This document shows, piece after piece, positions 19,289 to 32,814 of a stretch of 64,000 nt of DNA (its first letter is position 1; each line of letters starts with the position of its first letter). The notes under the pieces are model-generated. The model was not told the DNA's origin. It worked only from the letters and a program-made list of their open reading frames with translations, and made no database searches. The position numbers were made by a program, and so were the translations under genes. The DNA comes from Nitrospirota bacterium. GTDB lineage: Bacteria > Nitrospirota > UBA9217. Location: NCBI GenBank assembly GCA_963840455.1, contig CAWIYV010000007.1, positions 416,001 to 480,000 on the forward strand. The letters run 5' to 3'.

Positions 19289-20407
19289 CTATACGTCGCC
19301 GGGCATGGTCAAGGTGCTGTCGTAGCCGGTGATCCGGTTCTTCCCAGTTGCCTTGGACCGGTAGAGAGCAAGGTCCGCTTCGCGGATCAGGTCGGGGATG
19401 GTCTTCGGGGAGCCCTTCAGCATGGTCGAGACACCGATGCTCACGGTGATGACCTCAAAGGGGTGCGCGGTCTTGAGGGTGAAGGGATACGTTTCGATCG
19501 AGCTCCGCACCCGTTCCGCGACCGCCAGTGCTTCGCCCATGCCGGTCTCGGCCAGCAGAAGAGAGAATTCCTCCCCGCCGTAACGGAAGCAGACGTCTGT
19601 GCTTCCGGTCCTGCATGCCTCGCGAAGAAGGGGACCCAGCTGCGCGAGCACCCGGCTGCCTTCCAGGTGGCCGTAGCGGTCATTGACCCGCTTGAAGTTG
19701 TCGATATCCACCATGATGAAGGACAGGTCCCTGCCGGTGCGCACCTGTCTGCCGAATTCCTCTTCAAGCTTCTCCAGCAGCACCCGGTAGTTGAGCAGGC
19801 CGGTGAGCTCGTCGGTCCGAGCGATTTCGAGCGTTTTTTTGAAGAGCTCCGCCTTGTCGATACCGGCGGAGATCGTGTGGGACAGGGTCCGCAGAAGGTC
19901 GAAGTCCTCTACGCGGAACGCGGAGGGCTTGCTGCGGCTGAAGCCCATGACCCCTACGATGCGGTTATCGTTCTTGAGCGGTATGCCGATATAGCTGCCG
20001 TGCTTTTGCGTTTCATCAGGGTGATGCAGAAAGGCCTCATACAGCGCGGCATTGTCCAGAAAGAGCGGCTCGCCGTTGGCCGCGATCGCACCAGGCGCAC
20101 CGTTGTCGAAATAGATGGGTTCGGACATCTTTCCCTGCAGCAGGGGGCTTCGCAAATAGATCGGCATCAGGCCGGTAAGGTCCTTCTTGACGACATAGAC
20201 CGAGGCGTCGTCAAAGCTGACCGCCCTGCTGATGGTGGCTATGATCTTCTGGATGAGTTCCGCAGGTTCCAGTTCCGAAGCGATGATCCTGCCGACCTCG
20301 CTGAAGAGGTGGGTTTCGGTCATCTTGTTGTAGAAAAGAGGCTTGTAATCGCGCACCGGATGGGTCAAAACGCTCTTTTTCCTTTCGCCGGTCTTCAGTT
20401 CCACCAT
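19289..20407 (-). CDS. GAF-GGDEF diguanylate cyclase
   Basis: GAF domain, then DELTGLLN, DIDNFK, RYGGEEF. Confidence 0.9.
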   Translation of the reverse strand: MVELKTGERKKSVLTHPVRDYKPLFYNKMTETHLFSEVGRIIASELEPAELIQKIIATISRAVSFDDASVYVVKKDLTGLMPIYLRSPLLQGKMSEPIYFDNGAPGAIAANGEPLFLDNAALYEAFLHHPDETQKHGSYIGIPLKNDNRIVGVMGFSRSKPSAFRVEDFDLLRTLSHTISAGIDKAELFKKTLEIARTDELTGLLNYRVLLEKLEEEFGRQVRTGRDLSFIMVDIDNFKRVNDRYGHLEGSRVLAQLGPLLREACRTGSTDVCFRYGGEEFSLLLAETGMGEALAVAERVRSSIETYPFTLKTAHPFEVITVSIGVSTMLKGSPKTIPDLIREADLALYRSKATGKNRITGYDSTLTMPGDV

Positions 20408-20699
20408 GGTCCTGCTCCTTGAGAAAGCTCTTTCACATAATATACCACTAAATTATAGTAATAACAAGTTAAATTTGTCATTTCTGCCTGTTTACAGATA
20501 GTTGCAATACAGATAAGACAGCAATTGGTTGCAGATTGGATAGGCAGGGTGCAATACGTGACATCATTATTTTATCGCCATGCATCATGATTGCCCTTTA
20601 TATTTCAAACTGTTATAATAAATTAGTGGACAACAAAGACGTCTATGCGGACATTTCATGCACACGGTCATCTAAACCACAGCGCCTTATGATACCCCT

Positions 20700-21728
20700 A
20701 TGATGCAATCTTTCATGCCAATACACTTCCGTGGCCTCCAGATCGATCCTCCGCTCATTCTGGCGCCCATGGCTGGCCTTACGCACACAGCACTCCGTCA
20801 GGTCATCTCCAGTTTCGGAGGGATCGGCCTGTTATCAACGGAAATGCTCTCGGCAAAACGGCTGCCCACGGAAAACCCCGCCATCTCGCCGTACCTGATC
20901 AGGACCGCCTCGGAAAAGCCGCTTTCCTATCAGCTCCTGACCTCCATGGCAGGCGAGATCGCTCGTGCCATCGACGTGCTTCATGCCGTGCATGCGGATG
21001 CTATTGACCTCAATATGGGCTGCCCTGCCCCTGCCGTTGGAAAGTTCGGCGCCGGCTTCAGCCTGATGGAGCAACCGGAGAATGTCCGGCTGATCGTGGC
21101 AGAGGCGCGGAAGCGGACCTCGCTGCCCCTTACCGCGAAGATCCGGCTCGGCACCGAGCTCGACGAGCAGAGATTAAGGTCCTTCTGTACCATGCTCGAA
21201 GGCGAAGGCATTGACATGCTCTCGGTCCATGCCCGACTTAAACATGAGTCCTTTGCCAGAAGGCCGCGATGGGAACATATTGCCGGGATCAAAGAGCGGC
21301 TCAAGATCCCGGTCATTGCCAACGGCGGGATATTCTCAGTCCAGGATGCAAAAGACTGCCTGGCTGTATCGGGCGCAGACGGTCTGATGCTCGGTCGGGG
21401 TGCAGTAATACGTCCCTGGCTCTTTGCCGAGATCGCTCGGGAACTGTACGGCAGCGGCATTGCAGAACCGGCGGTCTCTTTGCCGGCAGTGTTTGGCAGA
21501 TTTCTCGACCTGCTGAACGGACATTTCCGGCCTGAACGCCGGCTCGGCAGGCTGAAGCAGTTCACTACATATTTTGCCCGGAACTATGCATTCGGCCATC
21601 ACCTGGCAACGAAGATCCAGACCAGCAACAGCGTGGAGGAAGCGCGGGAACAGGCCAACCAGTTCTTCACAAAGGCGCACAATATAACCACCGTGGTCAC
21701 AGCGTGTACAGAGAAAAGCTTGCTGTAA
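20700..21728 (+). CDS. tRNA-dihydrouridine synthase family protein
   Basis: LAPMAG, DLNMGCP, KIRLG, VHAR, IANGGI, MLGRG. Confidence 0.9.
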   Translation: MMQSFMPIHFRGLQIDPPLILAPMAGLTHTALRQVISSFGGIGLLSTEMLSAKRLPTENPAISPYLIRTASEKPLSYQLLTSMAGEIARAIDVLHAVHADAIDLNMGCPAPAVGKFGAGFSLMEQPENVRLIVAEARKRTSLPLTAKIRLGTELDEQRLRSFCTMLEGEGIDMLSVHARLKHESFARRPRWEHIAGIKERLKIPVIANGGIFSVQDAKDCLAVSGADGLMLGRGAVIRPWLFAEIARELYGSGIAEPAVSLPAVFGRFLDLLNGHFRPERRLGRLKQFTTYFARNYAFGHHLATKIQTSNSVEEAREQANQFFTKAHNITTVVTACTEKSLL

Positions 21729-21845
21729 TTTCATAACAACAATGTCTTGATCTTTGTTACCTCGGTGATCTCTGTGTCCTCTGCGGCGATAAGGTCATTG
21801 GTGCGAGCGCGTTACCCGCAGCTTGCAGCAGGGAGATCGAATACT

Positions 21846-22874
21846 ATGAAAGCCATGGTGCTCGGGAAGATCACGGACCTCGCGAACAACACATCGCCGC
21901 TTGAACTGGTCGATCTGCCGATCCCGGTCCCCCGGGACAACGAGGTCCTCGTGAAGGTCTCGGCCTGCGGCGTCTGCCACACCGAGCTGGACGAGATCGA
22001 GGGGAGGACGCCGCCTTCGAAGTTCCCAGTCATCCCTGGTCATCAGGTCGTGGGCCGTGTCGTGGGCCGCGGCAGCTCGACGGCAAGGTTCAAGGACGAC
22101 GAGCGGGTAGGGATCGCCTGGATCCATTCCGCCTGCGGGAAATGCGCATTCTGCCTGACCGGGAGGGAGAACCTCTGCAGCGATTTCAGGGCAACGGGAA
22201 GGGATGTGGACGGAGGGTACGCGGAATATACGACGGTCCCGGAAGCGTTTGCTTACCGGATCCCCGGGGTGTTCTCCGACGCGGAAGCAGCGCCGCTCTT
22301 GTGCGCCGGGGCCATCGGCTTTCGCTCGCTGCGTTTGGCAAACCTGAAGGACGGAGAAAACATCGGGTTGACCGGCTTCGGAGCCTCGGCCCATCTCGTG
22401 CTGAAGATGGTGCGGCACCGGTATCCCGGCTCGAACATCTCCGTCTTCTCCCGCACGGCAGGGGAGCGTGCGTTCGCAAAGGAGCTTGGTGCTGTCTGGG
22501 CAGGCGATACCGGGGACGATCCGCCGGAAAAACTGCATGCCATCATCGACACGACCCCTGCATGGAAGCCTGTTGTTGACGCATTGCGAAATCTTGAAAG
22601 GGGCGGGAGGCTGGTCATCAACGCCATTCGCAAGGTGGACACGGACAAAGACGCCCTGCTCGTGCTCCACTATGCCCGCGATCTCTGGATGGAAAAGGAG
22701 ATCAAGAGCGTGGCGAACATCACGCGGAGCGACGTGGAGAGCTTTCTGCAGATGGCGGCGGACATCCCGATCAGGCCCGACGTGCAGGAGTATCCGCTCG
22801 CCGATGCCAACGTTGCACTCCTTGAACTGAAGGAGCGAAAGATCCGCGGCGCGAAGGTGCTTACGATAGGGTGA
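21846..22874 (+). CDS. Zinc-dependent alcohol dehydrogenase family protein
   Basis: CGVCHTE, PGHQVVG, CGKCAFC..LC, LLCAG. Start at ATG 21846 after GGGAG. Confidence 0.9.
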   Translation: MKAMVLGKITDLANNTSPLELVDLPIPVPRDNEVLVKVSACGVCHTELDEIEGRTPPSKFPVIPGHQVVGRVVGRGSSTARFKDDERVGIAWIHSACGKCAFCLTGRENLCSDFRATGRDVDGGYAEYTTVPEAFAYRIPGVFSDAEAAPLLCAGAIGFRSLRLANLKDGENIGLTGFGASAHLVLKMVRHRYPGSNISVFSRTAGERAFAKELGAVWAGDTGDDPPEKLHAIIDTTPAWKPVVDALRNLERGGRLVINAIRKVDTDKDALLVLHYARDLWMEKEIKSVANITRSDVESFLQMAADIPIRPDVQEYPLADANVALLELKERKIRGAKVLTIG

Positions 22875-23077
22875 CGATCGTCGCCCGGGTACACAAGCGG
22901 AAGCGCTCCCGGGATACTGCGGGCAACATCGTCAATCCCGCGGGAATTACCCCTTCCTATTACTCCCTAGAATAACCCGACCCTAATCTACGTATCGTCT
23001 TTCCTCCATGGATCGTCTGTTGATCCTGTCAAAGAGTATTTTGTTCATGCATATCCGGAAGATGATAGTGATGCCTA

Positions 23078-24391
23078 TCACACCTTGATATGCAGCATCG
23101 GCAGTCCCAGCCGCTGCCGCTTGTTCTCCCCCTTGAACAGATCAGCCTTCCGCACCGGCACATCGCCCCGTTCTCCCTCGTGCTGCGCCTGCAGCTTCGT
23201 CGGCAGGCTGGCCCCGTGCTGGACCGCGTGCTTGCCGTACTTCCGGGAGAGCTCGTCGATGCTCTCGTAGATCTTCGCCATCTTCTCGATCTTCGTTGTG
23301 TCCTCGAAGAGCCCGTACTGGACGCCGCTCTCCGCCACCAGGCCGGACAGGACGACGCCGGTCTGGCGGTAGGGGGTATGGGCCAAGTACAGGCCACGGA
23401 ACCCCTCGCGCAGCATTGTGAACAGTTCGGACGGGAATGCCGTGGGGCGGCTCAACTTCAGTTCAACGCCGGTGCTCCGGTAGTCCTGCTGCCGGAGGAA
23501 GATGATCACCCTTTTGGCAACCAGGTGGTAGCGCCGTGCTTTGATGCAGGCGTTCTCCAAGTTCTTGGAGAGCTGTGCAAAGACAAAGGTCTCGTCCGTA
23601 GAGGGAGGGGTGAAGGTCTTTGCCTTGCTGATGGACTGGTAGGCGCTCTTGGTCTCCGTCGTGACCGGGTAGACGCTCCTGCCGTTCAGTTCGTGCCAGA
23701 TCTCCTGGTAGGGTTTGGAAAGGTACCTTGTCACGAACGCCTCGTCCTTCAGTGCGAACTCCAGGGCGGTCCTGATGCCGTGCTTGCCCAGGTAAGCCGC
23801 TGTGTTCGGGCCGATACCCCAGACCTTCTCCACGGGCAGCTTCCCGAGGAAGAGATGGATGTCCCTGCCGGGGATCAGCGTGATGCCGTGGGGCTTCTTG
23901 TGCTTCGATCCGATCTTTGCCAGGACCTTCGAGAGGCTTACCCCGACGGATACTGACAGCCCCAGCTCCTGCTCGATGGCTTCCTGCATCTTCAGTGCAA
24001 TCGTCCCGTAGGGGCCGTGAAATGTCCTCCTGAGGCCGGTCAGGTCCACGAAGGCTTCGTCGATGGAGTATTCCTCAACGTCCGGCGAAAAGCGTCTTAA
24101 TATTTCGAACATGCGCACCGAAAAGAGGCTGTAGGTCTCGTAGTCCGACGGGAGGATGACGGCGTCGGGGCAGAGCTTTTTCACGTCCGAGAGGCGCACT
24201 CCGCGCTGCACGCCGCGCGCCTTGGCCTCGTAGCTCGCCGCGGCCACGATGCCGCGCTCCTTGCCGGTGATGACCGGCCTGCCGCGCAGCTCCGGGTGGA
24301 TGGCCTGCTCGCAGGAGGCGAAGAAGGCGTCGGCGTCCAGGTGGAGGATGGCGCGGGGCCAGGAGGAGATGATGAGGGGTTGGTTGGACAT
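23078..24391 (-). CDS. dinB: Y-family DNA polymerase IV
   Basis: HLDADAFFASCE, AASYEAK, YSIDEAF, WGIG, clamp motif QYGLF. Confidence 0.92.
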   Translation of the reverse strand: MSNQPLIISSWPRAILHLDADAFFASCEQAIHPELRGRPVITGKERGIVAAASYEAKARGVQRGVRLSDVKKLCPDAVILPSDYETYSLFSVRMFEILRRFSPDVEEYSIDEAFVDLTGLRRTFHGPYGTIALKMQEAIEQELGLSVSVGVSLSKVLAKIGSKHKKPHGITLIPGRDIHLFLGKLPVEKVWGIGPNTAAYLGKHGIRTALEFALKDEAFVTRYLSKPYQEIWHELNGRSVYPVTTETKSAYQSISKAKTFTPPSTDETFVFAQLSKNLENACIKARRYHLVAKRVIIFLRQQDYRSTGVELKLSRPTAFPSELFTMLREGFRGLYLAHTPYRQTGVVLSGLVAESGVQYGLFEDTTKIEKMAKIYESIDELSRKYGKHAVQHGASLPTKLQAQHEGERGDVPVRKADLFKGENKRQRLGLPMLHIKV

Positions 24392-24450
24392 AAGGTAAAA
24401 CCCGACACGGAGACGGGGGACGCGGATTTACGCGGATCAATACAAGGGAC

Positions 24451-24510
24451 AGGGAACACGCGCCTGACGCGCTGCCTTTGGCGCGTCGCTGTGGACCCGC
24501 CTTGTTAGAA
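24451..24510 (-). mobile_element. attC-like site 2 (60 bp, distal arm degenerate)
   Basis: TTCTAAC AAGGCGGGTCCACAGCGACGCGCCAAAGGCAGCGCGTCAGGCGCGT GTTCCCT. The 5' two-thirds closely match attC1. Confidence 0.65.
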
Positions 24511-24548
24511 TTCTCATTGGGTTTTATGTAGTCCCAGTGATACAGGAC

Positions 24549-25025
24549 CTACAACGGGACAACGCCGCGTGATGTGATATTGTATTTGTGAATTGATTTT
24601 ATGCTGTGCTTGTTGAGATCGTGATCAACTTGAATTTCTAATGTCGTCCCAGTCCAACGGCACGAGAGGTAGATCTGGCCTTTATAGTTCAATTCGATTG
24701 GAGATAGGAGCTTCTTTTTTGATAGATCAAGGATGTTAACTCTAGATTTGCATCCATCATCTGCGCAATAAGGCAGTGCAATCAGATTATGTTCCAGGTT
24801 TAGAAGGGGCTGACCCGCGGCATCATTCTTACCCAAAGTGATTAATGTGCTTCCAATTTTGATTTGATAGACTGTATCCCGACCTTCATAAACACCCGTC
24901 CAGTACATTACGATCTTGTCTCCGCTCGGAAGTACTTCTTGAGTGGTCCATGTTCGATCAGCGGCATAAGATAATGCCACTACGTTAGCGAATACAAGAA
25001 CCGTCAGAATAGTTTGTTTAATCAT
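24549..25025 (-). CDS. Cassette gene 2: exported hypothetical protein
   Basis: Low GC, signal peptide, YCADDGC. Begins ~16 nt after the attC1 R' with RBS AAGGTGG; alternative start 25031. Confidence 0.65.
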   Translation of the reverse strand: MIKQTILTVLVFANVVALSYAADRTWTTQEVLPSGDKIVMYWTGVYEGRDTVYQIKIGSTLITLGKNDAAGQPLLNLEHNLIALPYCADDGCKSRVNILDLSKKKLLSPIELNYKGQIYLSCRWTGTTLEIQVDHDLNKHSIKSIHKYNITSRGVVPL

Positions 25026-25040
25026 ATTCATCCACCTTGG

Positions 25041-25100
25041 GACTAACACGCCGGTCACGCGCCGCCCCTTGGCGCGACGCTGTGGACCGGCTTGTTGTCG
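25041..25100 (-). mobile_element. Integron attC site 1 (60 bp)
   Basis: R'' CGACAAC ... R' GTTAGTC. GCCGGT/ACCGGC stem; the bottom strand has extrahelical G and T on one arm. Lies 12 nt after the cassette 1 stop. Confidence 0.8.
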
Positions 25101-25112
25101 TATTTCTTTCGG

Positions 25113-25541
25113 TTATGGCGTGATAGAGTACTTGCCGTTTACATCAGAGGCGATAACACCATCAGGCGAATGAACCCAAAATAGGTTCAGATGTAAATAT
25201 TTATTTTCCGCATCGATCCAAGCATATCCTAAGTCCCAATGATGCATATTGGTCTTTATATCTTCAATCGAATAATAATAGCCTTTTTGATTGCGATAAG
25301 ACCAGTCACGCCCTTTGCCAGATAAGCTGATTTTAAAGTGAAGGGTTTCTTTTGGGAAGGTACCTTCAGGTGTTATCAATTGCCAATGAAGTTTTTGAGT
25401 AGTTACGTTGAGTAGGTATCCGCCATCGGGTTGAGGTGATATGGAATAATCTTTATTAATTGTACTTCCTAAGCCGAACACGGAAAGATACACAACGAAT
25501 AACACGGCAAGGCCAATCAGCAAATGTTTTCGCTTTACCAT
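25113..25541 (-). CDS. Cassette gene 1: membrane-anchored hypothetical protein
   Basis: Low GC, N-terminal TM helix, AGGAG RBS, followed directly by attC1. Confidence 0.7.
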   Translation of the reverse strand: MVKRKHLLIGLAVLFVVYLSVFGLGSTINKDYSISPQPDGGYLLNVTTQKLHWQLITPEGTFPKETLHFKISLSGKGRDWSYRNQKGYYYSIEDIKTNMHHWDLGYAWIDAENKYLHLNLFWVHSPDGVIASDVNGKYSITP

Positions 25542-25590
25542 AGCTCTCCTGCAAGATTTCGAATGATAAATCCGACGCTAAAGTTTTTTA

Positions 25591-25615
25591 CCAGATAACA
25601 AGATGTTATCGGAAC
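25591..25615 (-). mobile_element. attI-like or dif-like tyrosine-recombinase core site
   Basis: CGATAAC-ATCTT-GTTATCT (AAC-N5-GTT), immediately upstream of cassette 1. Confidence 0.55.
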
Positions 25616-25621
25616 GGAAAC

Positions 25622-25708
25622 CGTCATCTACATATATATACAACTATCTATCGGTATATGGATCCATCTACCAGTAGATGACGAACTGCCATATACCGGT
25701 AGATGGTT
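25622..25708. repeat. Interleaved inverted repeats built on an ATCTAC motif
   Basis: 25622-31/25674-83 (10/10), 25642-61/25689-708 (18/20), CATCTAC-CA-GTAGATG at 25665-80. Confidence 0.75.
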
Positions 25709-25723
25709 TTTCAGTTGTTAATG

Positions 25724-26074
25724 TCATTCGGAATCATCTACCTGTATATGCTTTTCCAAAGGTGTACCGCCAATCTTTCCGTATTTCACAAACCATAGTT
25801 TCTTCTCCGGGTCCCACCACCCGCCCGCTGCTTTGGCATGCAATCGTGACGGCATGTCGAAAGCGTCGATGTGCAGAGGCACAAGCGTGTCGACCGCAAA
25901 TCGTGGTGGAGGAGGGGTCCAGTCAGTCCTTTCCACGATCAACTCGACAGTCTTCAACCGCTGCCGCGACTCCTTGTCATACTTGAAACGAACGCAGAGC
26001 AGGGCATCGCCGTACTGTTCCACGAGCCTTTTGGTCCCAGGCTGCCCCGGTTTGAGAATCAATCGCGTTTTCAT
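25724..26074 (-). CDS. Hypothetical protein; C-terminus DUF5710-like (AKAAGGWWDPEKKLW)
   Basis: MKTRLILKPGQPGTKRLVEQYGDALLCVRFKYD..KTVELIVE; coherent 116-aa ORF. Confidence 0.7.
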   Translation of the reverse strand: MKTRLILKPGQPGTKRLVEQYGDALLCVRFKYDKESRQRLKTVELIVERTDWTPPPPRFAVDTLVPLHIDAFDMPSRLHAKAAGGWWDPEKKLWFVKYGKIGGTPLEKHIQVDDSE

Positions 26075-26096
26075 TGGACGTTTTGAACAATTCCAG

Positions 26097-26336
26097 CTAA
26101 GCGCTCTTTTGATGGTGAGAGGTATACCAGTCGACAAGCTGGCGTATCATTTTTTGATACGAGGTGTGATGTTTCTTGGCCTCTTTCTTAAAGAACTCCA
26201 CACTCGACTTTTTCAGGGCGATAGTCACCTTGATATTGTCTTCTTTAAGAACAAGTTGCTCAGGCGGCGGAAGAAAGTCATCGATCACTTTCAGTTTTCC
26301 AATCGGCTCATCCGAATATTTAATTTTGCTCTTCAT
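26097..26336 (-). CDS. BrnA/CopG-like RHH antitoxin
   Basis: DFLPPPEQL..KVTIAL..VEFFK..YQKMIR; overlaps the toxin stop. Confidence 0.8.
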   Translation of the reverse strand: MKSKIKYSDEPIGKLKVIDDFLPPPEQLVLKEDNIKVTIALKKSSVEFFKKEAKKHHTSYQKMIRQLVDWYTSHHQKSA

Positions 26337-26598
26337 ATATTTTCTTTCCTTTCCTCCAATATCCCGCACCGTAAATGCGGATAGTCTCTCCTCGAAAGGT
26401 GAACCGTACCGTTATGATGCCTTCGCCGACGCGGCCGATACAATAATATCGATCTTCTTCCGTGCTATGCTCGATATCCTCAACGATGATGCGATGAGGA
26501 TCAAGAAAGGCCTGCTGGGCAAGCGAGAGGGGCATCCCATGTTTCTTCTGGTTCTCTTTGTCTTTTTCCGCATCCCACTCAAAACGGATTTTCTTCAC
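26320..26598 (-). CDS. brnT: BrnT-family ribonuclease toxin
   Basis: FEWDAEKDKENQKKHG, HSTEEDRY, IRIYGA; GTG start. Confidence 0.85.
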   Translation of the reverse strand: MKKIRFEWDAEKDKENQKKHGMPLSLAQQAFLDPHRIIVEDIEHSTEEDRYYCIGRVGEGIITVRFTFRGETIRIYGAGYWRKGKKIYEEQN

Positions 26599-26688
26599 TG
26601 GGGCCACCTTACCACAAAGCATTTAATTGGGCAATATAAATATATGGCAAATTATATGGAATTAGGGGCGATACTTTCACATTGACGG

Positions 26689-27282
26689 TCACTTGTATTT
26701 TCTCACCACCGCCGTCACGACGCCGGCTACTTTAAGCTCGTTCTTAGGCTTGATGGGCTGGTACTTGGGATTGGCGGGGACGAGGGTGACGGTGTCGCCG
26801 CGCTTGCGGAGATATTTCATGGTCCACTCTCCGTCCACCTGGGCGATGACGATGTCGCCGCTTTTCGGCGTCTGGCCCTTGTCCACAATGACCATGTCGC
26901 CGGGCAGGATGCCCGCGCCGGACATGGAGTCGCCGGATACTTTTAAGAGAAAGGTGGCCTCGCGGTTCTGGATGAGGAAATCGTCGAGCGAGAGGGTGTC
27001 CACCAGCTCTTCCTCGGCAGGAGAGGGGAATCCGGCCTCGACCGTGCCGAGCACCTTGACGGGCTTTGCGATCGCCAGGGGCAGCAGCCTGCCTTTCTTG
27101 TCCCGTTCTATGACTCTGAGCTTCTCAAGCTTGCCGATGAACTTGAAGACCGCGTTCTTCGACCTGAGGCCGGTCAGATCGCCGATCTCGGAGTAGCTCG
27201 GCATCCTGCCGCTGCTTTTGAAGAACTTCCTGATCTCCTGGATGCGGGACTGGACGGTCGCGTCTTTTAGTGTTCGTGGCAT
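26689..27282 (-). CDS. lexA: LexA/UmuD-family S24 self-cleaving repressor
   Basis: N-terminal HTH (RMPSYSEI), cleavage site EAGFPSPA, catalytic Ser (GDSM) and Lys (TMKY). Confidence 0.85.
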   Translation of the reverse strand: MPRTLKDATVQSRIQEIRKFFKSSGRMPSYSEIGDLTGLRSKNAVFKFIGKLEKLRVIERDKKGRLLPLAIAKPVKVLGTVEAGFPSPAEEELVDTLSLDDFLIQNREATFLLKVSGDSMSGAGILPGDMVIVDKGQTPKSGDIVIAQVDGEWTMKYLRKRGDTVTLVPANPKYQPIKPKNELKVAGVVTAVVRKYK

Positions 27283-27288
27283 GGGAAT

Positions 27289-27318
27289 ATTATAAGTGAA
27301 CGAACGTTCACTTGTCAA
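27289..27318 (-). promoter_or_regulatory. TTGACA-N18-TATAAT promoter whose spacer is a palindromic operator (GAAC-N4-GTTC)
   Basis: Plus strand reads AAGTGAACG-AA-CGTTCACTT; the -10 lies 6 nt from the lexA ATG. Confidence 0.85.
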
Positions 27319-27355
27319 GGAAGGAGTTGCCTGCGGGGACCCAGCGGAAATAACA

Positions 27356-27386
27356 AAAAGGGGCCAGTCTCTTCGAATGGCCCCTT
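27356..27386 (-). terminator. Intrinsic terminator after the tRNA 3' duplicate
   Basis: AAGGGGCCA..TGGCCCCTT followed by a T-run on the minus strand. Confidence 0.6.
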
Positions 27387-27395
27387 AATTCGTTA

Positions 27396-27440
27396 TGGAG
27401 CGGGTGGCGGGACTCGAATCCGTGACCTCAACCTTGGCAA
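27396..27440 (-). mobile_element. att site: 45-bp duplicate of the tRNA-Gly 3' end
   Basis: 44/45 identical to 28507-28551; begins in the anticodon loop. Confidence 0.9.
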
Positions 27441-27533
27441 ATCAACAATTTGTATATGTGTTCGGAAAAAAGATATGATGTTGCGGCAGCGGCACTTATT
27501 GATAAGCATCCAGAAAAGGCAGAGGTGGTGAAA

Positions 27534-27983
27534 CTATTGTTCGTCGGCAATCCTGTATTTCTTTTTTAAGACTTGCGTTACGCGTGTTGCGTCGTATATT
27601 AAGCCATCGCCTTCCGGTTTTTCTTTGAAACAGAGAATTGTATTCGACGCACTTGGCATAGAAATATCATATGTTTCACCGCCAGGCGTGGTCGTTATCT
27701 GGGACGGCGTAGTATATGCGGAAACTGATGAGTCTTTAACGGATTTAACAATGACAAAATATCTGAATCCATTTTGAAGAGTCAATTCCGCTGAGCGGAG
27801 GAGAGCAAAATCGGATTCTATTTCATGGCCTGTATAACTATTTCCCCGAAAACTTACTTGGAATATATTGTCGCCAAGTTGACTTTCAGAATATCCACCG
27901 GTGAAACCTTCCGGTTGATACTTCGTTGCAGCACAGCCCATAAGAAAGATAACCAATGCAAAGAGAATGAGGAATATTCGCAT
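27534..27983 (-). CDS. Lipoprotein (CC0125/CC1285-like)
   Basis: LMGC lipobox, GGYSESQL, FRGN, ALLRSAELTLQNGFRYF. Confidence 0.7.
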   Translation of the reverse strand: MRIFLILFALVIFLMGCAATKYQPEGFTGGYSESQLGDNIFQVSFRGNSYTGHEIESDFALLRSAELTLQNGFRYFVIVKSVKDSSVSAYTTPSQITTTPGGETYDISMPSASNTILCFKEKPEGDGLIYDATRVTQVLKKKYRIADEQ

Positions 27984-28249
27984 AAATTACCCCCCCCTTA
28001 ATGAAATATTATCATAAAGCATCGCGAAAGGTTTAGATATGTGGAGTACCGACGCGGCACGGAGAAAGCACGGACAAGACACGGACGCGGGGACTTGGGG
28101 ATAGGAAATATAAGCCCTTCTACGGGGGCGTTATGAGGTCTTATAGGTCCGGCGTGTTTTAAGGGCCTGAAATTGCCATTGACCTGTTTAGGAGAAAAGA
28201 ACCATGAAAAACAAGAAGACACCGGAGACGGTGATAGGGAATGCTGTGA

Positions 28250-28420
28250 GTCTATTGGCTGGTCATGAAGGGCGTCGATCTGGCAACGGTCAAGGAACTC
28301 CTGGGTCATGCAGATATCAAGATGACTTTGCGCTACGCATATCTGGCATTGGCGCATAAGAAAAAAGCCATCGATATACTTCGGAGGGAAGATCAGGATG
28401 GCAGCGGTGAAGCAGTCTGA
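28250..28420 (+). pseudogene. Tyrosine integrase C-terminal remnant
   Basis: Manual translation YWLVMKGVDLATVKELLGHADIKMTLRYAYL (LLGH...Y box); in-frame stop immediately upstream. Confidence 0.85.
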
Positions 28421-28469
28421 ACAGTTGCGAAATGCTGATACTGCACAATTTACATCACAGTCCAAAGAA

Positions 28470-28499
28470 AAAGGGTTATCCGTTACGGATAACCCCTTG
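28470..28499 (-). terminator. Terminator after tRNA-Gly
   Basis: GGGTTATCCGT-T-ACGGATAACCC plus a T-tract. Confidence 0.7.
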
Positions 28500-28506
28500 A
28501 TAATAA

Positions 28507-28582
28507 TGGAGCGGGTGGCGGGACTCGAACCCGTGACCTCAACCTTGGCAAGGTCGCGCTCTACCAACTGAGCTACACCCGC
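28507..28582 (-). tRNA. tRNA-Gly(GCC)
   Basis: GCGGGTGTAGCTCAGTTGGTAGAGCGCGACCTTGCCAAGGTTGAGGTCACGGGTTCGAGTCCCGCCACCCGCTCCA. Confidence 0.95.
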
Positions 28583-28718
28583 GCTCTTTTTGAGCAGGGA
28601 CAAATATAACAAAACCGGTCTTATCTTGTCAACAGAAAAGTAGTTCCATCGCGACATAACTGACGCAGGCACCGTACTTTTTTCGCCGCAGCCATACCGC
28701 GCTGCGGGTTTTGAGGTG

Positions 28719-28747
28719 TTGACTCTCCCGGTCCAGTGTGGTATTTA
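28719..28747 (+). promoter_or_regulatory. Probable htpX promoter TTGACT-N17-(TG)TATTTA
   Basis: Direct read. Confidence 0.45.
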
Positions 28748-28798
28748 TACAAGTGTTCAAACAGCCGTTATTCCGATCCAGGAGGTAGGAAAAGCAGT

Positions 28799-29647
28799 AT
28801 GAATACGATAAAAACAGTGGTTCTTTTGACCTTTTTGACGGTGCTGCTCGTGTTCGTGGGCGGAGCGATCGGCGGCAGGAGCGGCATGATCATCGCCTTC
28901 GGCATGGCACTGGTCATGAACTTCGTGTCCTACTGGTTCAGCGACAAGATCGTCCTGTCCATGTACCACGCCCAGCCGGTCACCGAGGCGCAGGCCCCGG
29001 ACCTGTATGGTTCTGTGCGCAGGCTCAGCCAGAAGGCTGGCCTGCCCATGCCCAAGGTCTACATCATCCCGGAGCAGGCGCTCAACGCCTTTGCCACGGG
29101 CCGGAACCCGGAGCACGGCGTCGTGGCCGTGACTGAGGGGATCCTGCGGGCGCTGTCCCGTGAGGAACTGGAGGGTGTGCTCTCCCATGAACTGTCGCAC
29201 ATCAAGCACCGCGACATCCTGACCGGCACCATCGTGGCGACCATCGCCGGCGCGATCAGCATGCTGGCACAGATGGCGCAGTGGGCGATGCTCTTCGGCG
29301 GCGGCAGGCGGGACGACGACGAGGGCGGCAGCCCGATCGTGGCCCTGGTCATGATGATCGTGGCGCCCATCGCGGCCATGCTGGTGCAGATGGCCATCTC
29401 GCGCACGCGGGAATACGAGGCCGACAAGGGCGGCGCGCAGATCGCGGGAAATCCCTACGGTCTCGTGAACGCGCTCCAGAAGCTCGAACAGGCTGCGCAG
29501 GTCGTACCGATGCAGGACGCGAAGCCCGCAACGGCGCACATGTTCATCGTGAACCCGCTGACGGGCGGTGGGCTCATGAAACTGTTCAGCACCCATCCGC
29601 CGATCGCGGAGCGGGTGAAGAGGCTGAGAGAGCTGGCCCGGGGATAA
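28799..29647 (+). CDS. htpX: Zinc metalloprotease HtpX
   Basis: [29 protein letters not shown]; AGGAGG upstream. Confidence 0.95.
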
Positions 29648-29672
29648 CCATTCTCTCATGTGATCCAGGTAC

Positions 29673-29706
29673 AGCCCTGCCGGCACGTCGGCAGGGCTTT
29701 TCTTTT
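29673..29706 (+). terminator. Intrinsic terminator of htpX
   Basis: AGCCCTGCCG-gcacgt-CGGCAGGGCT-TTTCTTTT. Confidence 0.85.
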
Positions 29707-29805
29707 CCGCTTTCCGGGCGTGTCGCATCGGCGGAGTCCGGCAGTATTGCCTTGAAAATCCCGCAACCCTGTGATAAGTTGATGATCGATCAGCGGCCAT
29801 GGAAA

Positions 29806-29919
29806 ATCCAGGAGCGAGCGCAATTCCCGCAGCCTGATGCGGGGTTAGCGAGCGATTAGGATGACGAAACTACCGTGAGGATCGAAGATTCCCTGCAGCT
29901 TGCTGCAGGGAGCTTCAAT
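29806..29919 (+). mobile_element. ~115-bp two-hairpin non-autonomous element, copy 1 (IS200/IS605-end-like)
   Basis: High similarity to the reverse complement of 57802-57916; hairpin CCCTGCAGCTTGCTGCAGGG. Confidence 0.7.
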
Positions 29920-29942
29920 TGCCCGTTGAAGGAGGTGTTGAC

Positions 29943-30350
29943 GTGCGGTACCGGTATATTTCCTACAAATATTCCCGCAAGGTGAGCCCGGACACGGCGC
30001 TCCAGAACATCTGGGAGACCTTCGGCACCTGGGCAATGCCGGTTGCTTCCGGGTGGCGGCCGCCGACGGACGTCTTCGAGACACCCGACCAGCTTATCGT
30101 CCTGATCGAGGTCGCCGGGGTTACCGAGGAGGACATCAGCGTGACCCTGTTTAGTGATCTCCTGGTGGTGGAGGGGGTCCGCGAACAGCCGCAGTTCTTC
30201 AAGGGGGGCATGTCGGCCTGCCACCAGCTGGGGATCAAGTACGGCGATTTCCGCTCCGAGGTCTACATCCCGGTCAACGTGGACCACGACAACGTGACGG
30301 CGGAATACAAGAACGGCCTGCTCAAGATCGTCCTGCGGAAGATCGGATGA
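29943..30350 (+). CDS. Hsp20/alpha-crystallin small heat-shock protein
   Basis: WRPPTDVFET, YGDF, AEYKNGLLKI; GTG start after AAGGAGGT. Confidence 0.85.
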   Translation: MRYRYISYKYSRKVSPDTALQNIWETFGTWAMPVASGWRPPTDVFETPDQLIVLIEVAGVTEEDISVTLFSDLLVVEGVREQPQFFKGGMSACHQLGIKYGDFRSEVYIPVNVDHDNVTAEYKNGLLKIVLRKIG

Positions 30351-30432
30351 TCCGCACATGAATATCCGGCAGGGATTCAAAGGACTGTTCCAAAAACGTG
30401 CGCAACCCACGCAACCAACGAGGAGCAACGAG

Positions 30433-32814
30433 ATGGAAGACAAACTCGAGGCACAACCTGAAAAGATACCGCCGGTGCCCGCGGAGCTGCCGCTCCTTCC
30501 GCTGAAGGACACGGTGGTCTATCCGATGACGGTCTACCCGCTCGTGATCGGCAAGGAAAAGTCCATCAAGCTGATCAACGACATCACGGTGGGGGACAAG
30601 ATCCTGGCACTCACGGCCCAGAAGAGGACGGACGTGGAGGTTGCAAGTCCCGGCGATGTGTACACCGTCGGCACCATGGCGCGCATCCTCCAGATGGTCA
30701 AGGCGCCCGACGGCACGCTCCGGGTGCTGGTCCAGGGGATCGAACGCATCGCCATCGAGGGGTTCGTCCAGAACGAACCGTTCATCCGGGCGAAAGTGAC
30801 GGCGAAGCCGGACGCAAGCGAAAAGACGGTCCCCATCGAGGCGCTGATGCGCGGGCTTGCCGAGCTGTTCCAGAAGATGGTGTCGCTCACGCCGAACATG
30901 CCCGAGGAGCTCTCGGCGGCGGCGCTCAACATCGAGGATCCGCGTCAGCTCACCTACCTGGTGGCGACGAACATCCGCCTGGAGCTCGGGCAGCGTCAGG
31001 AGATCCTGGAGATCGACCCCGTTGCCGAGAAGATGAACCGGCTCATGCTGGTACTGAACCGGGAGATCGAGGTCTTGGAGCTGGGCAGGAAGATCCAGGG
31101 CCAGGCCAAGGACCAGATGCAGAAGGCGGAGCGGGAGTACATCCTGCGGCAGCAGCTCTCTGCCATCCGCAAGGAGCTAGGCGAGGAGTCGGACGACGGC
31201 TCGGAGACAAAGAGCCTGCGCGAGAAGATCGAACAGGCGAAGCTGCCGCCCGAGGCCGAGAAGGAGGCGAAGCGCGAACTGTCGCGCATGGAGAAGCTGA
31301 ACCAGACCTCGCCCGAGTATTCCGTGATCCGTACCTATCTCGAGTGGATGACCGGCCTGCCGTGGAATACGCTCTCGGCGTCTCCCATCGACATTGCGAA
31401 GGCGAAGGAGACGCTGGATGCGGACCACTACGGCCTGGAGAAGGTCAAGGATCGCATCCTGGAGTACCTGGCTGTGAAGAAGCTGGGCGACGAGCGCGGT
31501 GCAGGAGAGGGGACGCGGATGCGCGAGCCTATCCTGTGCTTTGCCGGCCCTCCTGGCGTGGGCAAGACGTCCCTGGGCCAGTCCATCGCCCGGGCGCTGA
31601 ATCGGAAGTTCGTCCGGCTGTCGCTCGGCGGACTGCATGATGAAGCAGAGATCCGCGGACACCGCCGCACCTATATTGGCGCCATGCCCGGACGTATCAT
31701 CCAGGTCCTGAAACGCGTGGAGACGCGCGACCCGGTCATCATGCTGGATGAGGTGGACAAGGTGGGCGCTGATTGGCGGGGCGACCCGTCATCAGCGCTG
31801 CTGGAGGTGCTGGACCCGGAGCAGAACAAGGACTTCCGGGACAACTACCTCGACGTTCCCTTCGACCTTTCCAAGGTTATGTTCATAACCACGGCGAACC
31901 AGCTCGAGACCATCCCGGCGCCGCTCCTGGACCGCATGGAGGTGCTCCGACTGTCGGGATACACGGAGCACGAGAAGCTGAACATAGCGAAAAAATACCT
32001 GGTCCCTAAGGAGATCACGGCGAATGCCCTGAAGGCCGAAGAGGTCGTCATCGAGGATGAGACAATCCAGGGCATCATCAAGGACTACACGCGCGAGGCC
32101 GGCGTCAGGAACTTGGAGCGCGAGATCGCCAACGTCTGCCGCAAGGTGGCGAAAGCGGTTGCCGAAGGCAAACCGGCGCCCATCACGGTGACGGCAAAGG
32201 ACCTCCGCGACTATCTCGGCAGGCCGCGGTTCTTCGCCGAGACCTCGGTCATGATCGACCGCCCCGGCGTGGTCACGGGCCTCGCCTGGACGCCCGTAGG
32301 CGGCGACATCCTGTTCGTCGAAGCGTCCATGATGCCGGGGAATAAGCAGCTGACCCTGACAGGACAGCTCGGCGACGTGATGAAGGAGTCCGCGCAGGCT
32401 GCGCTGTCCTATGTGCGGGCTCATGCCGAGGAGCTTGGGCTCAAGAAGGACTTCTTCGAGAAGACCGACATCCACATCCACGTTCCGGCAGGCGCCATCC
32501 CAAAGGATGGTCCTTCAGCGGGGGTGACCATGACCACGGCCCTTGTGTCCCTGCTGACCGGGAGGCGCGTGAAGAGCGATCTTGCTATGACCGGTGAGAT
32601 CACGCTCCGGGGCAAGGTGATGCCCATCGGCGGTATAAAGGAAAAGGCTCTGGCCGCGCGGCGTGCAGGGATCAAGACCATCATCCTGCCCGAGCGGAAC
32701 ATGAACGACCTCGAGGACATTCCCGAGGACCTGCGGAGAGAGATGACCTTCGTTCCCGTCGAACGGATCGACCAGGTGATCGCCGAGGCGCTGATGGAGA
32801 AAGAGGCGTCATAA
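30433..32814 (+). CDS. lon: ATP-dependent protease La
   Basis: GPPGVGKT, GHRRTYIGAMPG, PKDGPSAG. Start at ATG 30433 after AGGAG; alternative 30358. Confidence 0.96.
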   Translation: MEDKLEAQPEKIPPVPAELPLLPLKDTVVYPMTVYPLVIGKEKSIKLINDITVGDKILALTAQKRTDVEVASPGDVYTVGTMARILQMVKAPDGTLRVLVQGIERIAIEGFVQNEPFIRAKVTAKPDASEKTVPIEALMRGLAELFQKMVSLTPNMPEELSAAALNIEDPRQLTYLVATNIRLELGQRQEILEIDPVAEKMNRLMLVLNREIEVLELGRKIQGQAKDQMQKAEREYILRQQLSAIRKELGEESDDGSETKSLREKIEQAKLPPEAEKEAKRELSRMEKLNQTSPEYSVIRTYLEWMTGLPWNTLSASPIDIAKAKETLDADHYGLEKVKDRILEYLAVKKLGDERGAGEGTRMREPILCFAGPPGVGKTSLGQSIARALNRKFVRLSLGGLHDEAEIRGHRRTYIGAMPGRIIQVLKRVETRDPVIMLDEVDKVGADWRGDPSSALLEVLDPEQNKDFRDNYLDVPFDLSKVMFITTANQLETIPAPLLDRMEVLRLSGYTEHEKLNIAKKYLVPKEITANALKAEEVVIEDETIQGIIKDYTREAGVRNLEREIANVCRKVAKAVAEGKPAPITVTAKDLRDYLGRPRFFAETSVMIDRPGVVTGLAWTPVGGDILFVEASMMPGNKQLTLTGQLGDVMKESAQAALSYVRAHAEELGLKKDFFEKTDIHIHVPAGAIPKDGPSAGVTMTTALVSLLTGRRVKSDLAMTGEITLRGKVMPIGGIKEKALAARRAGIKTIILPERNMNDLEDIPEDLRREMTFVPVERIDQVIAEALMEKEAS

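Follow-up and report, generated by a model that had tools for sequence, protein, structure and literature searches.

How does a short array of gene cassettes come to lie between a LexA-like repressor gene and the gene of a Y-family DNA polymerase, with no integron integrase gene (intI) anywhere near it? The locus occupies positions 23,078 to 27,318 of a 64,000-nucleotide stretch, here called the window, which is positions 416,001 to 480,000 of contig CAWIYV010000007.1 in the Nitrospirota bacterium assembly GCA_963840455.1; coordinates below are positions in that window unless another locus is named. Its gene order, established from a listing of open reading frames (ORFs) together with Pfam and NCBIfam scans, is the one that the original prediction had proposed from the letters: on the minus strand, LexA-like gene, brnT, a brnA-like gene, a gene here called unk, a block of palindromes, a GTT junction, cassette 1 with attC1, cassette 2 with attC2, and the polymerase gene (Table 1). 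The array is a sedentary, integrase-less cluster of attC sites, vertically inherited in a LexA-like/Y-polymerase SOS locus of a family of Thermodesulfovibrionales (Nitrospirota), and the platform at its head is made up of unk, a phased set of four to five palindromes and a conserved core with GTT at its end. That this is an orphan platform of the attI type, carrying a short and currently stalled array and served in trans in relatives, is the reading that we consider likely. Two or more clustered attC sites without a nearby intI are present, which is what is called a CALIN (attC sites in a cluster that has no integron integrase), and the adjacent functional intI of a complete integron is absent. 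In those portions of the text of a survey that bear on such clusters (bioRxiv 10.1101/2022.09.11.507474), which give this definition and cite the IntegronFinder work, two cassettes is the commonest CALIN size (1362 of 2961).

Are the hairpins attC sites?

The bottom strand of attC1 folds at -21.4 kcal/mol (z -4.1), none of 200 shuffles doing as well, with C, A, T and G bulged out on the 3′ arm only. It had been described as a canonical site with two extrahelical bases; its AAC and GTT ends do pair, but the predicted bulged bases are four, not two. The fold of attC2 is poor (z -1.9; 7 of 200 shuffles as good) because its two arms no longer match, and the site looks decayed, though still of the same sequence family as attC1. 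Both have the inverted outer boxes AAC...GTT (R″ and R′). In an alignment, A1, of 24 sites of this family, found by pattern and nhmmer searches in this genome and at the lexA–polymerase loci of its relatives (all genomes compared here being metagenome-assembled genomes, MAGs, with many short contigs), the AAC and GTT columns pair in 21 to 24 of the 24 sequences. RNAalifold gives A1 a stem of 13 pairs, nine of them with compensatory changes, and when the AAC/GTT and inner pairs are added 89.5% of cells are paired, against 29–46% on sliding partners. The covariation score of 0.224, as against 0.071 for shuffles, was reached by none of 500 of these, and the unpaired columns 23, 27, 31 and 33 are conserved. 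A cruder finder of AAC...GTT hairpins, which is not strand-specific, served only to choose sites for inspection.

How could a mere family of hairpins be told from a family of genuine attC sites? A covariance model, R1, was seeded only with lexA–polymerase-locus sites and with scattered sites of this genome, and as no model can vouch for the sites that seeded it, its informative test is at the intI loci of relatives. At six of these with intI over the TIGR02249 cut-off (L079–L084), R1 finds 22 further sites (nine in L080, three in L081, five in L082, one in L083 and two each in L084 and L079), and every one of the 22 lies to the 5′ side of intI, on the strand opposite to it. The window sites are therefore of the attC family of the group's true integrons, and with the covarying stem their proposed identity as attC sites is borne out. 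Inside the window R1 matches only these two, 590 bp apart; about 16 copies of the family are scattered over the genome. Two sites lie at a broken intI, and about a dozen more, paired or single, on other contigs. No T-run follows the hairpins.

Both cassette ORFs have, as read by eye, a hydrophobic N-terminal stretch, and neither has a family match in Pfam or NCBIfam. Low GC content had been claimed for them and is found, at 0.424 for cassette 1 and 0.446 for cassette 2 against about 0.60 in the flanks, the fall to 0.38–0.48 extending over 24550–25750. Just past the G/TT of attC2 (the slash marks a proposed crossover), the sequence TTCC.TGTCCC is one that also occurs upstream of the polymerase gene in two genomes of the same genus (L058, L059).

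Contigs of four metagenome runs, short ones, could be matched to the locus. Many of them match attC cores only and diverge on both sides, the matches beginning at the TT of the respective R′ GTT, 25045 and 24455, and a 1038-nucleotide contig of another metagenome matches, over 26200 to 25596, unk with the palindromes, and ends at the head junction. The breaks at 25045, 24455 and 25596 fit the proposed crossovers. A 151-nucleotide contig joining 24849 to 25821, with 24 letters on one side, was disregarded. At most 0.10 of the sampled words were present in any one sequencing run, and no RNA run was listed.

What stands at the head of the array?

The start of unk is probably Met22 of its longest frame, since homologues begin there. 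A word-indexed search gave 931 of these, all 'hypothetical', and a full profile search 3013 representative clusters, all unnamed, of which 1746 are at E 1e-10 or better; the ESM Atlas, too, returned unnamed clusters only, and longer, possibly fused, forms come to just three proteins. With DUF5710 (PF18974) there is a match of 22.3 bits, below the cut-off of 26.5 and over 21 residues only, and many homologues carry a precomputed PF18974 label. The NCBIfam scan had no match for unk, nor for brnT, brnA or either cassette ORF. An AlphaFold2 model (pLDDT 89.7) has two small alpha/beta domains, to which comparison with the PDB assigned no fold (best Foldseek E 0.53; best Z 3.8 in a wide VIA-align search). 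Comparison by hhalign of unk with the 180-residue N-terminal extension of the IntI of the window's family gave a probability of 0.15%.

The outermost palindrome overlaps the last codons of unk. The palindrome motif occurs five times at the locus and three times in the rest of the 4.03-Mb genome. Six genera share one plan downstream of unk: palindromes of the CCATMTACNGGTAKATGG type, then a core that reads, by eye, CCGTyyAGaTAAyAaCTkG/TTA, then unrelated sequence, the divergence beginning directly after the core GTT. A strict core pattern is found in four of the six (L063, L064, L066, L068) as well as in the window, and a fixed palindrome pattern in five of the six and in the window, at three to five copies; L063 has none, its own repeats being different. 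The attI-like site of the original prediction is this conserved junction, beyond which the cassettes of relatives differ. The palindromes were also considered as the attI of canonical integrons, and rejected as they are absent from the intI loci of the six relatives named above.

Does the head belong to integrons at all?

A scan of species-representative genomes for unk gave 54 loci, in Nitrospirota, Acidobacteriota (many of them Blastocatellia), Chloroflexota, Spirochaetes, KSB1, Calditrichota, Ignavibacteriales and others. When these were searched by tblastn with the IntI of a relative, intI was found adjacent to unk in 21. Twelve of the 21 are complete in length and run divergently to unk across a gap of some 180–500 bp, two are divergent scraps, four lie directly upstream in the same direction and three directly downstream; four unk-adjacent IntI score 437–503 bits on TIGR02249. 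At five Nitrospirota loci lexA is upstream instead of intI, and at the remaining loci unk comes after ordinary genes (ilvD, transaldolase, scpA, clp, purA). Many of the contigs end a few hundred bases past unk, as is to be expected of a repeat-bearing variable array.

What is the frequency when the count is unbiased? For this the 151 genomes of the class that contains L095, a Blastocatellia MAG, were taken (G170 adds one intI, without adjacent unk). There are 85 intI matches in 76 of these genomes and 83 unk matches in 42, and unk is within 1.5 kb of 28 of the 85 intI, always divergent and with gaps of 150–829 bp. With 13 plus-strand intI at no more than 700 bp from the start of a contig, 28 of 85 is a lower bound. 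Twelve genomes of the class have unk without intI, two of them with six and seven unk matches.

In every lineage inspected, four to five lineage-specific palindromes follow unk, for instance TTTCCAGTACTGGAAA, TTTCTGATATAAGAAA or GTTTCTCCATAGACCAA. Across unrelated lineages they are spaced at about 24, 20 and 20 bp, and apart from one stray match in L111 they are confined to the 100–130 bp that separate the end of unk from the core. There follow a shared core, TCTAATTCATG/TT, with divergence beyond it, and, downstream, sites of the attC form GCCTAAC...GTTAGGC with one-sided bulges, the same plan standing between intI and the first attC. Because the sequence of the palindromes changes with the protein while their geometry stays fixed, unk is proposed to bind them; in our reading it would mark a platform of the attI type able to persist without intI. 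The term 'satellite platform', used in the original prediction for a site of capture served in trans, gains concrete meaning from the presence of unk and its palindromes beside intI in other phyla.

Mobile elements of other kinds were seen next to this head. In three Blastocatellia MAGs (L097:8430-9723, L100:8420-8546, L116:7990-9244) the core GTT is followed by a shared start, GAACTAACGC, which in L097 leads into an IS91-family (Y2_Tnp) transposase gene, and at L086:4882-6936 a Y2 transposase and a tyrosine recombinase come after unk. IS91-like elements may target the head core. Immediately downstream of unk at L094:9171-9956, and on the other strand, is a gene for a group II intron reverse transcriptase/maturase, an arrangement similar to that of the attC-targeting group II introns that have been reported.

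Where is the integrase, and do the cassettes turn over?

A profile search of the whole window found no TIGR02249 match, in agreement with the claim that intI is absent from it. The best match on the 14 contigs scores 135.6 bits against a cut-off of 265, at C7:125148-125564, 291 kb away, and the gene there is split: its C-terminal part is in another frame some 0.7 kb on, with a PDDEXK_3 gene between the parts. This genome's only intI is a pseudogene. The integron with the broken intI (G000:C7:121650-126400; L001, L073) has on its 5′ side two opposite-strand attC sites and a lipoprotein-like cassette.

Orthologues of the polymerase, with 72–93% identity, are present in 18 of 40 relatives, and up to 12 kb upstream was taken for 15. 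In ten loci (L060, L061, L063–L068, L070 and L072, in the last of which it is adjacent) lexA was located upstream of the polymerase gene, at distances of 1.8 to 9.8 kb. An empty site in relatives had been foreseen, and there is one case: only in L072, the genome of another family, are lexA and the polymerase gene direct neighbours, 118 bp apart. In 11 of 16 relatives' loci R1 matches, one to seven sites each, fall in the interval that the polymerase gene forms with lexA or with the end of the contig; the primary matches are all on the polymerase strand, and three opposite-strand rows (E 0.086–0.55) shadow strong sites. Of the 11 relatives with an array, ten possess an intI that passes the cut-off in another part of the genome; at the lexA–polymerase locus there is none. 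A homologue of unk stands on the lexA side in seven of the 15 loci; at two loci of the same genus the contig stops short of that place.

What of the cassettes themselves? The window and four genomes of its genus, whose polymerases are 88–93% identical, carry wholly different ones: L058 has at least five others, L059 two, L060 a set of toxin–antitoxin pairs, and L061 a permease together with a HigBA pair. Neither window cassette had a tblastn match at the relatives' loci, and cassette content, whose comparison had been proposed as a check, does differ. At L067:2991-4518 the products of the first cassette past unk are a restriction enzyme resembling SfiI and an N6/N4 DNA methylase, and an attC follows. 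The interval between lexA and unk holds, in relatives, other toxin–antitoxin pairs and PDDEXK_3 genes.

Given cassette turnover in relatives whose intI is elsewhere, service in trans by an intI so placed is plausible. In this genome capture has probably stalled, because its intI is a pseudogene and attC2 has decayed, while relatives show turnover; the array of the window may now be frozen. How might such a platform work? Probably as dimers, unk would bind the palindromes and form a nucleoprotein arm beside the core. Going by the anatomy and the comparison with relatives, an integrase encoded elsewhere would recombine the folded bottom strand of an attC with this core at G/TT. New cassettes would thereby enter directly after the palindromes and older ones shift toward the polymerase gene. 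The cassettes, co-oriented with lexA, brnTA and unk, would be read from upstream promoters, one of them with a LexA box, and the polymerase gene would be at the end of the path.

The SOS side

The LexA-repressed promoter of the original prediction has a counterpart: between the -35 and -10 hexamers before lexA lies GTGAACGTTCGTTCAC, of the form GAAC-N4-GTTC, which we take to be one type of LexA box. No match other than GAACNNNNGTTC at 27298-27309 lies within 15 kb, GAAC-N4-GTTC occurring five times in the 64 kb. As the -10 ends six nucleotides before the likely ATG (27282-27294), the lexA mRNA may be leaderless. A further promoter-like site, with 10 of 12 matches, precedes brnT (26680-26651); a simple sigma70-type scan found none between unk and cassette 1, and the cassettes are also without their own. 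Is the polymerase gene, 2297 bp from the lexA stop, within reach of transcription from upstream? It had been claimed that there is no obvious terminator between the two, and nothing strong is there, yet one weak terminator-like site exists on the minus strand at 26524-26510, inside brnT. Since the path holds only that one, co-transcription of the array and the polymerase gene from upstream would be possible.

The repressor scores 129.1 bits on TIGR00498 (cut-off 110.95) and 127 bits on the UmuD family NF007621 (cut-off 110), by which it would be intermediate between LexA and UmuD. Its sequence shows AG, GDSM and, further on, a K, presumably with their usual meaning as motifs. For the polymerase the name dinB was too specific: by Pfam IMS it is of the Y family, but it falls below every NCBIfam Pol IV cut-off (best 255.8 against 381; NF002677 214.1 against 256) and is not a canonical DinB. 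Otherwise the original interpretation has stood as regards attC identity, the absent integrase, the attI-like junction, the LexA box and the empty relative.

The promoter-and-box design of the window's lexA recurs in another genome (L069:2812-2860, G013), where TTGACA-GTGAACACTTGTTCAC-TTACAAT directly precedes the polymerase gene; lexA was not found in the 3.1 kb upstream of that gene. A second SOS locus of the present genome (G000:C7:62500-65400, L139) has on one strand a 95-residue ORF, DinB (326 bits against 256) and LexA (214 bits), these two being the genome's canonical pair, unlike the polymerase and repressor of the window. The 95-residue ORF, whose match with DUF6504 stays under the threshold (17.5 bits against 24.2), is presumably ImuB-C-like. 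Could unk be a standalone ImuB-C of the GSU0042 kind? This was rejected: PF20114, which we take to be the ImuB-C family, matches the L139 ORF and not unk, and the hhalign probability is 0.09%. The identity was checked because lexA-imuB-C-polY operons are known, on the evidence of portions of the text of two papers, from Geobacter sulfurreducens (PMC6511836, PMC3765255).

The locus and its surroundings

Table 1. Features of the locus, in window coordinates, from the polymerase gene to the lexA promoter
Feature	Position	Strand	Basis or remark
Y-family DNA polymerase (DinB/UmuC-like), distal flank	23078..24391	-	Pfam IMS 1.8e-47, IMS_C, IMS_HHH
attC2, terminal, decayed in appearance	24446..24516, R′ GTT 24455-24457	-	R1 63.7 bits (model seed)
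Cassette 2, 590 bp	24457..25046, ORF 24549-25031 (160 aa)	-	bounded by R′ GTT of attC1 and attC2
attC1, well formed	25036..25106 or about 25041-25102, R′ GTT 25045-25047	-	R1 76.5 bits (model seed)
Cassette 1, 552 bp	25047..25598, ORF 25113-25541 (142 aa)	-	from head junction G/TT (between 25599 and 25598) to attC1 R′
attI-like core CCGTTCCGATAACATCTTG/TTA	25596..25617	-	GTT junction 25597-25599; proposed crossover G/TT between 25599 and 25598
Five phased palindromic iterons, about CCATMTACNGGTAKATGG	25624..25751	.	starts 25626, 25646, 25666, 25691, 25736
unk, 116-aa basic protein, isoelectric point 9.3, platform head gene	25724..26074	-	ORF
brnA-like antitoxin gene	26097-26369	-	weak DUF6364 match
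brnT	26320-26622	-	PF04365 1.7e-19, 70.3 bits against cut-off of 34.5
LexA/UmuD-like S24 repressor gene	26689..27282	-	Peptidase_S24 1.8e-30, weak LexA_DNA_bind
lexA promoter TTGACA-18-TATAAT, GTGAACGTTCGTTCAC between hexamers	27289..27318	-	12/12 promoter match

The brnA-like ORF overlaps brnT, the arrangement being that of a BrnT toxin and an overlapping downstream gene, and the pair sits between lexA and unk, outside the attC-bounded array. Upstream of lexA, at about 27393-27437 on the minus strand, is a 45-nucleotide copy of the 3′ half of tRNA-Gly(GCC), facing an intact tRNA-Gly at 28507-28582. Between the copies are a low-GC lipoprotein-like ORF (27534-27983) and a C-terminal scrap of a tyrosine recombinase (28265-28420), the only one in the window, and the whole of 27393-28582 looks like a decayed 1.1-kb tRNA-Gly island with att repeats, of which the scrap would be part. 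In relatives lexA adjoins htpX, without that island. Over 20000-32000, with E up to 10, tRNA-Gly was the only significant Rfam hit, and Rfam has no family for attC sites. Spurious ORFs at 29845-30084 in the window and at L001:2390-2735 contain peptide strings that are nearly identical (APCSKLQG.FDP / AASCRESSIL); the short repeat behind them is probably of the repetitive extragenic palindromic (REP) kind.

Which reading is to be preferred?

Several observations count against the orphan platform served in trans. There is no intact intI in a genome (4.03 Mb) rated 100% complete, and attC2 is degenerate. R1 is home-made rather than IntegronFinder's model, with both window sites among its seeds. 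No fold or family search gave unk a DNA-binding label, and the simple scan found no promoter-like site in the palindrome region. The canonical integrons of L079–L084 have neither unk nor the palindromes, so IntI works without them. Part of the plasticity of the locus must be otherwise caused, since the lexA–unk interval varies and is without attC sites. Finally, unk is truncated in G005 and was not found at the loci of G004 and G009, where attC matches are kept, so the head module is not indispensable for keeping an array.

Several of these points would suit the chief rival, that of a dead relic, in which an integron of the unk type lost its intI, nothing has been captured since, and the differences among relatives are old divergence and decay. 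The pseudogene and the decayed attC2 agree with it, as does the state of unk, which is cut short in L061 and absent from L060 and L070. In the Nitrospirota L086 and L091 intI or an intI scrap stands beside unk, from which it follows that loss of intI from the platform happens, and the survey cited above, in the same portions of its text, treats many CALINs as products of intI loss. However, a relic of this sort does not sit well with entirely different cassettes in genomes of one genus, with differences that begin exactly at the head core G/TT, or with the intact intI elsewhere in ten of the 11 array-bearing relatives, and we judge it improbable, if by no means negligible. A good deal further down the scale is a chance insertion at a genomic attG site in an SOS operon, unk being then an SOS gene of the ImuB-C kind with the palindromes as its operator, and neither having to do with integrons. 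The place of unk between lexA and the polymerase gene recalls the Geobacter operons as described in part in the two papers on them, and IntI does insert at genomic sites, possibly a source of small CALINs in the survey's account as far as those portions go; but the ImuB-C family finds its match at the other dinB–lexA pair, outside the window's own family unk adjoins intI or housekeeping genes and not polymerases, and the same plan of core and palindromes precedes canonical attC arrays in other phyla, so that we give this account very little credence. As for the idea that the hairpins are REP-like elements or terminators and the small ORFs ordinary island genes, GC-rich hairpins after ORFs and some 16 copies over the genome would be in keeping with it, whereas AAC/GTT ends, a covarying stem, one-sided bulges, strict orientation to intI in 22 of 22 cases and hairpins without a T-run are not; it seems to us next to impossible.

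Beyond the orphan platform and its stalled array there is a broader proposal, which we advance tentatively, doubting it somewhat more than we believe it: that unk is an unrecognised platform protein which binds phased palindromes beside the attI core and defines a widespread subclass of integrons, whose satellites without intI survive and keep capturing cassettes, one of them lying in an SOS-controlled mutagenesis operon, where DNA damage would turn on cassette expression and error-prone synthesis at once. As part of the same joint reading, and with equal reserve, the subclass would be the one found beside about a third of the intI of one class and also in MAGs of Chloroflexota, Spirochaetota, KSB1, Calditrichota, Ignavibacteriales and Nitrospirota. 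Integrons have been described as having three parts, intI, attI and a promoter. If the proposal is true there is a fourth conserved part, spread over thousands of sequence clusters, which changes the annotation of environmental integrons; some 'headless' CALINs would be organised satellite platforms, and there would be a handle on array starts where assemblies break. The unk module makes attI recognition outside the clinical classes testable, and its position between a LexA-like repressor and an error-prone polymerase provides a concrete case in which a stress response could drive both mutation and the use of captured genes.

Comparison with known systems

In open-access text no description was found of a conserved gene at the array head that has phased palindromes of its own and is linked to intI in several phyla; CALINs are already known, and the conserved intI-linked head gene with its palindromes is the new point. 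The window array is like a CALIN in its two co-oriented attC sites, its promoterless small ORFs and the lack of an intI nearby. It differs in keeping a head module and in occupying one syntenic locus across genera while its cassettes are replaced, CALINs being for the most part described as fragments without a head or as insertions by chance.

Sedentary chromosomal integrons (the superintegron of Vibrio, for one, or that of Xanthomonas next to ilvD) resemble it in their fixed chromosomal position, vertical inheritance, variable cassettes mostly of unknown function and nearby toxin–antitoxin genes; the window locus, however, has no intI, and has an extra protein gene and palindromes between the position of intI and the first cassette. 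For the head itself the parallels are attI1, with its accessory integrase-binding repeats DR1 and DR2, and the attP of phage lambda, whose arms bind Xis and IHF. There too a simple crossover core has phased repeats on one side that would assemble an accessory protein, but the repeats of the window are palindromes that co-vary with a separate small protein, their putative ligand, and not with the integrase.

With Geobacter's lexA-imuB-C-polY operon, as far as the available portions of its description go, the locus has in common an S24 repressor, a small gene and a Y-family polymerase, all co-directional, and an autoregulated lexA promoter; unk is unrelated to the ImuB-C-like ORF, and between the partners are 2.3 kb of toxin–antitoxin genes and cassettes. 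Integron integrase promoters are also under SOS control. That control, like the arrangement described here, ties the LexA regulon to integron activity; the difference is that here LexA would act not on intI but on a promoter upstream of the array and of the polymerase gene.

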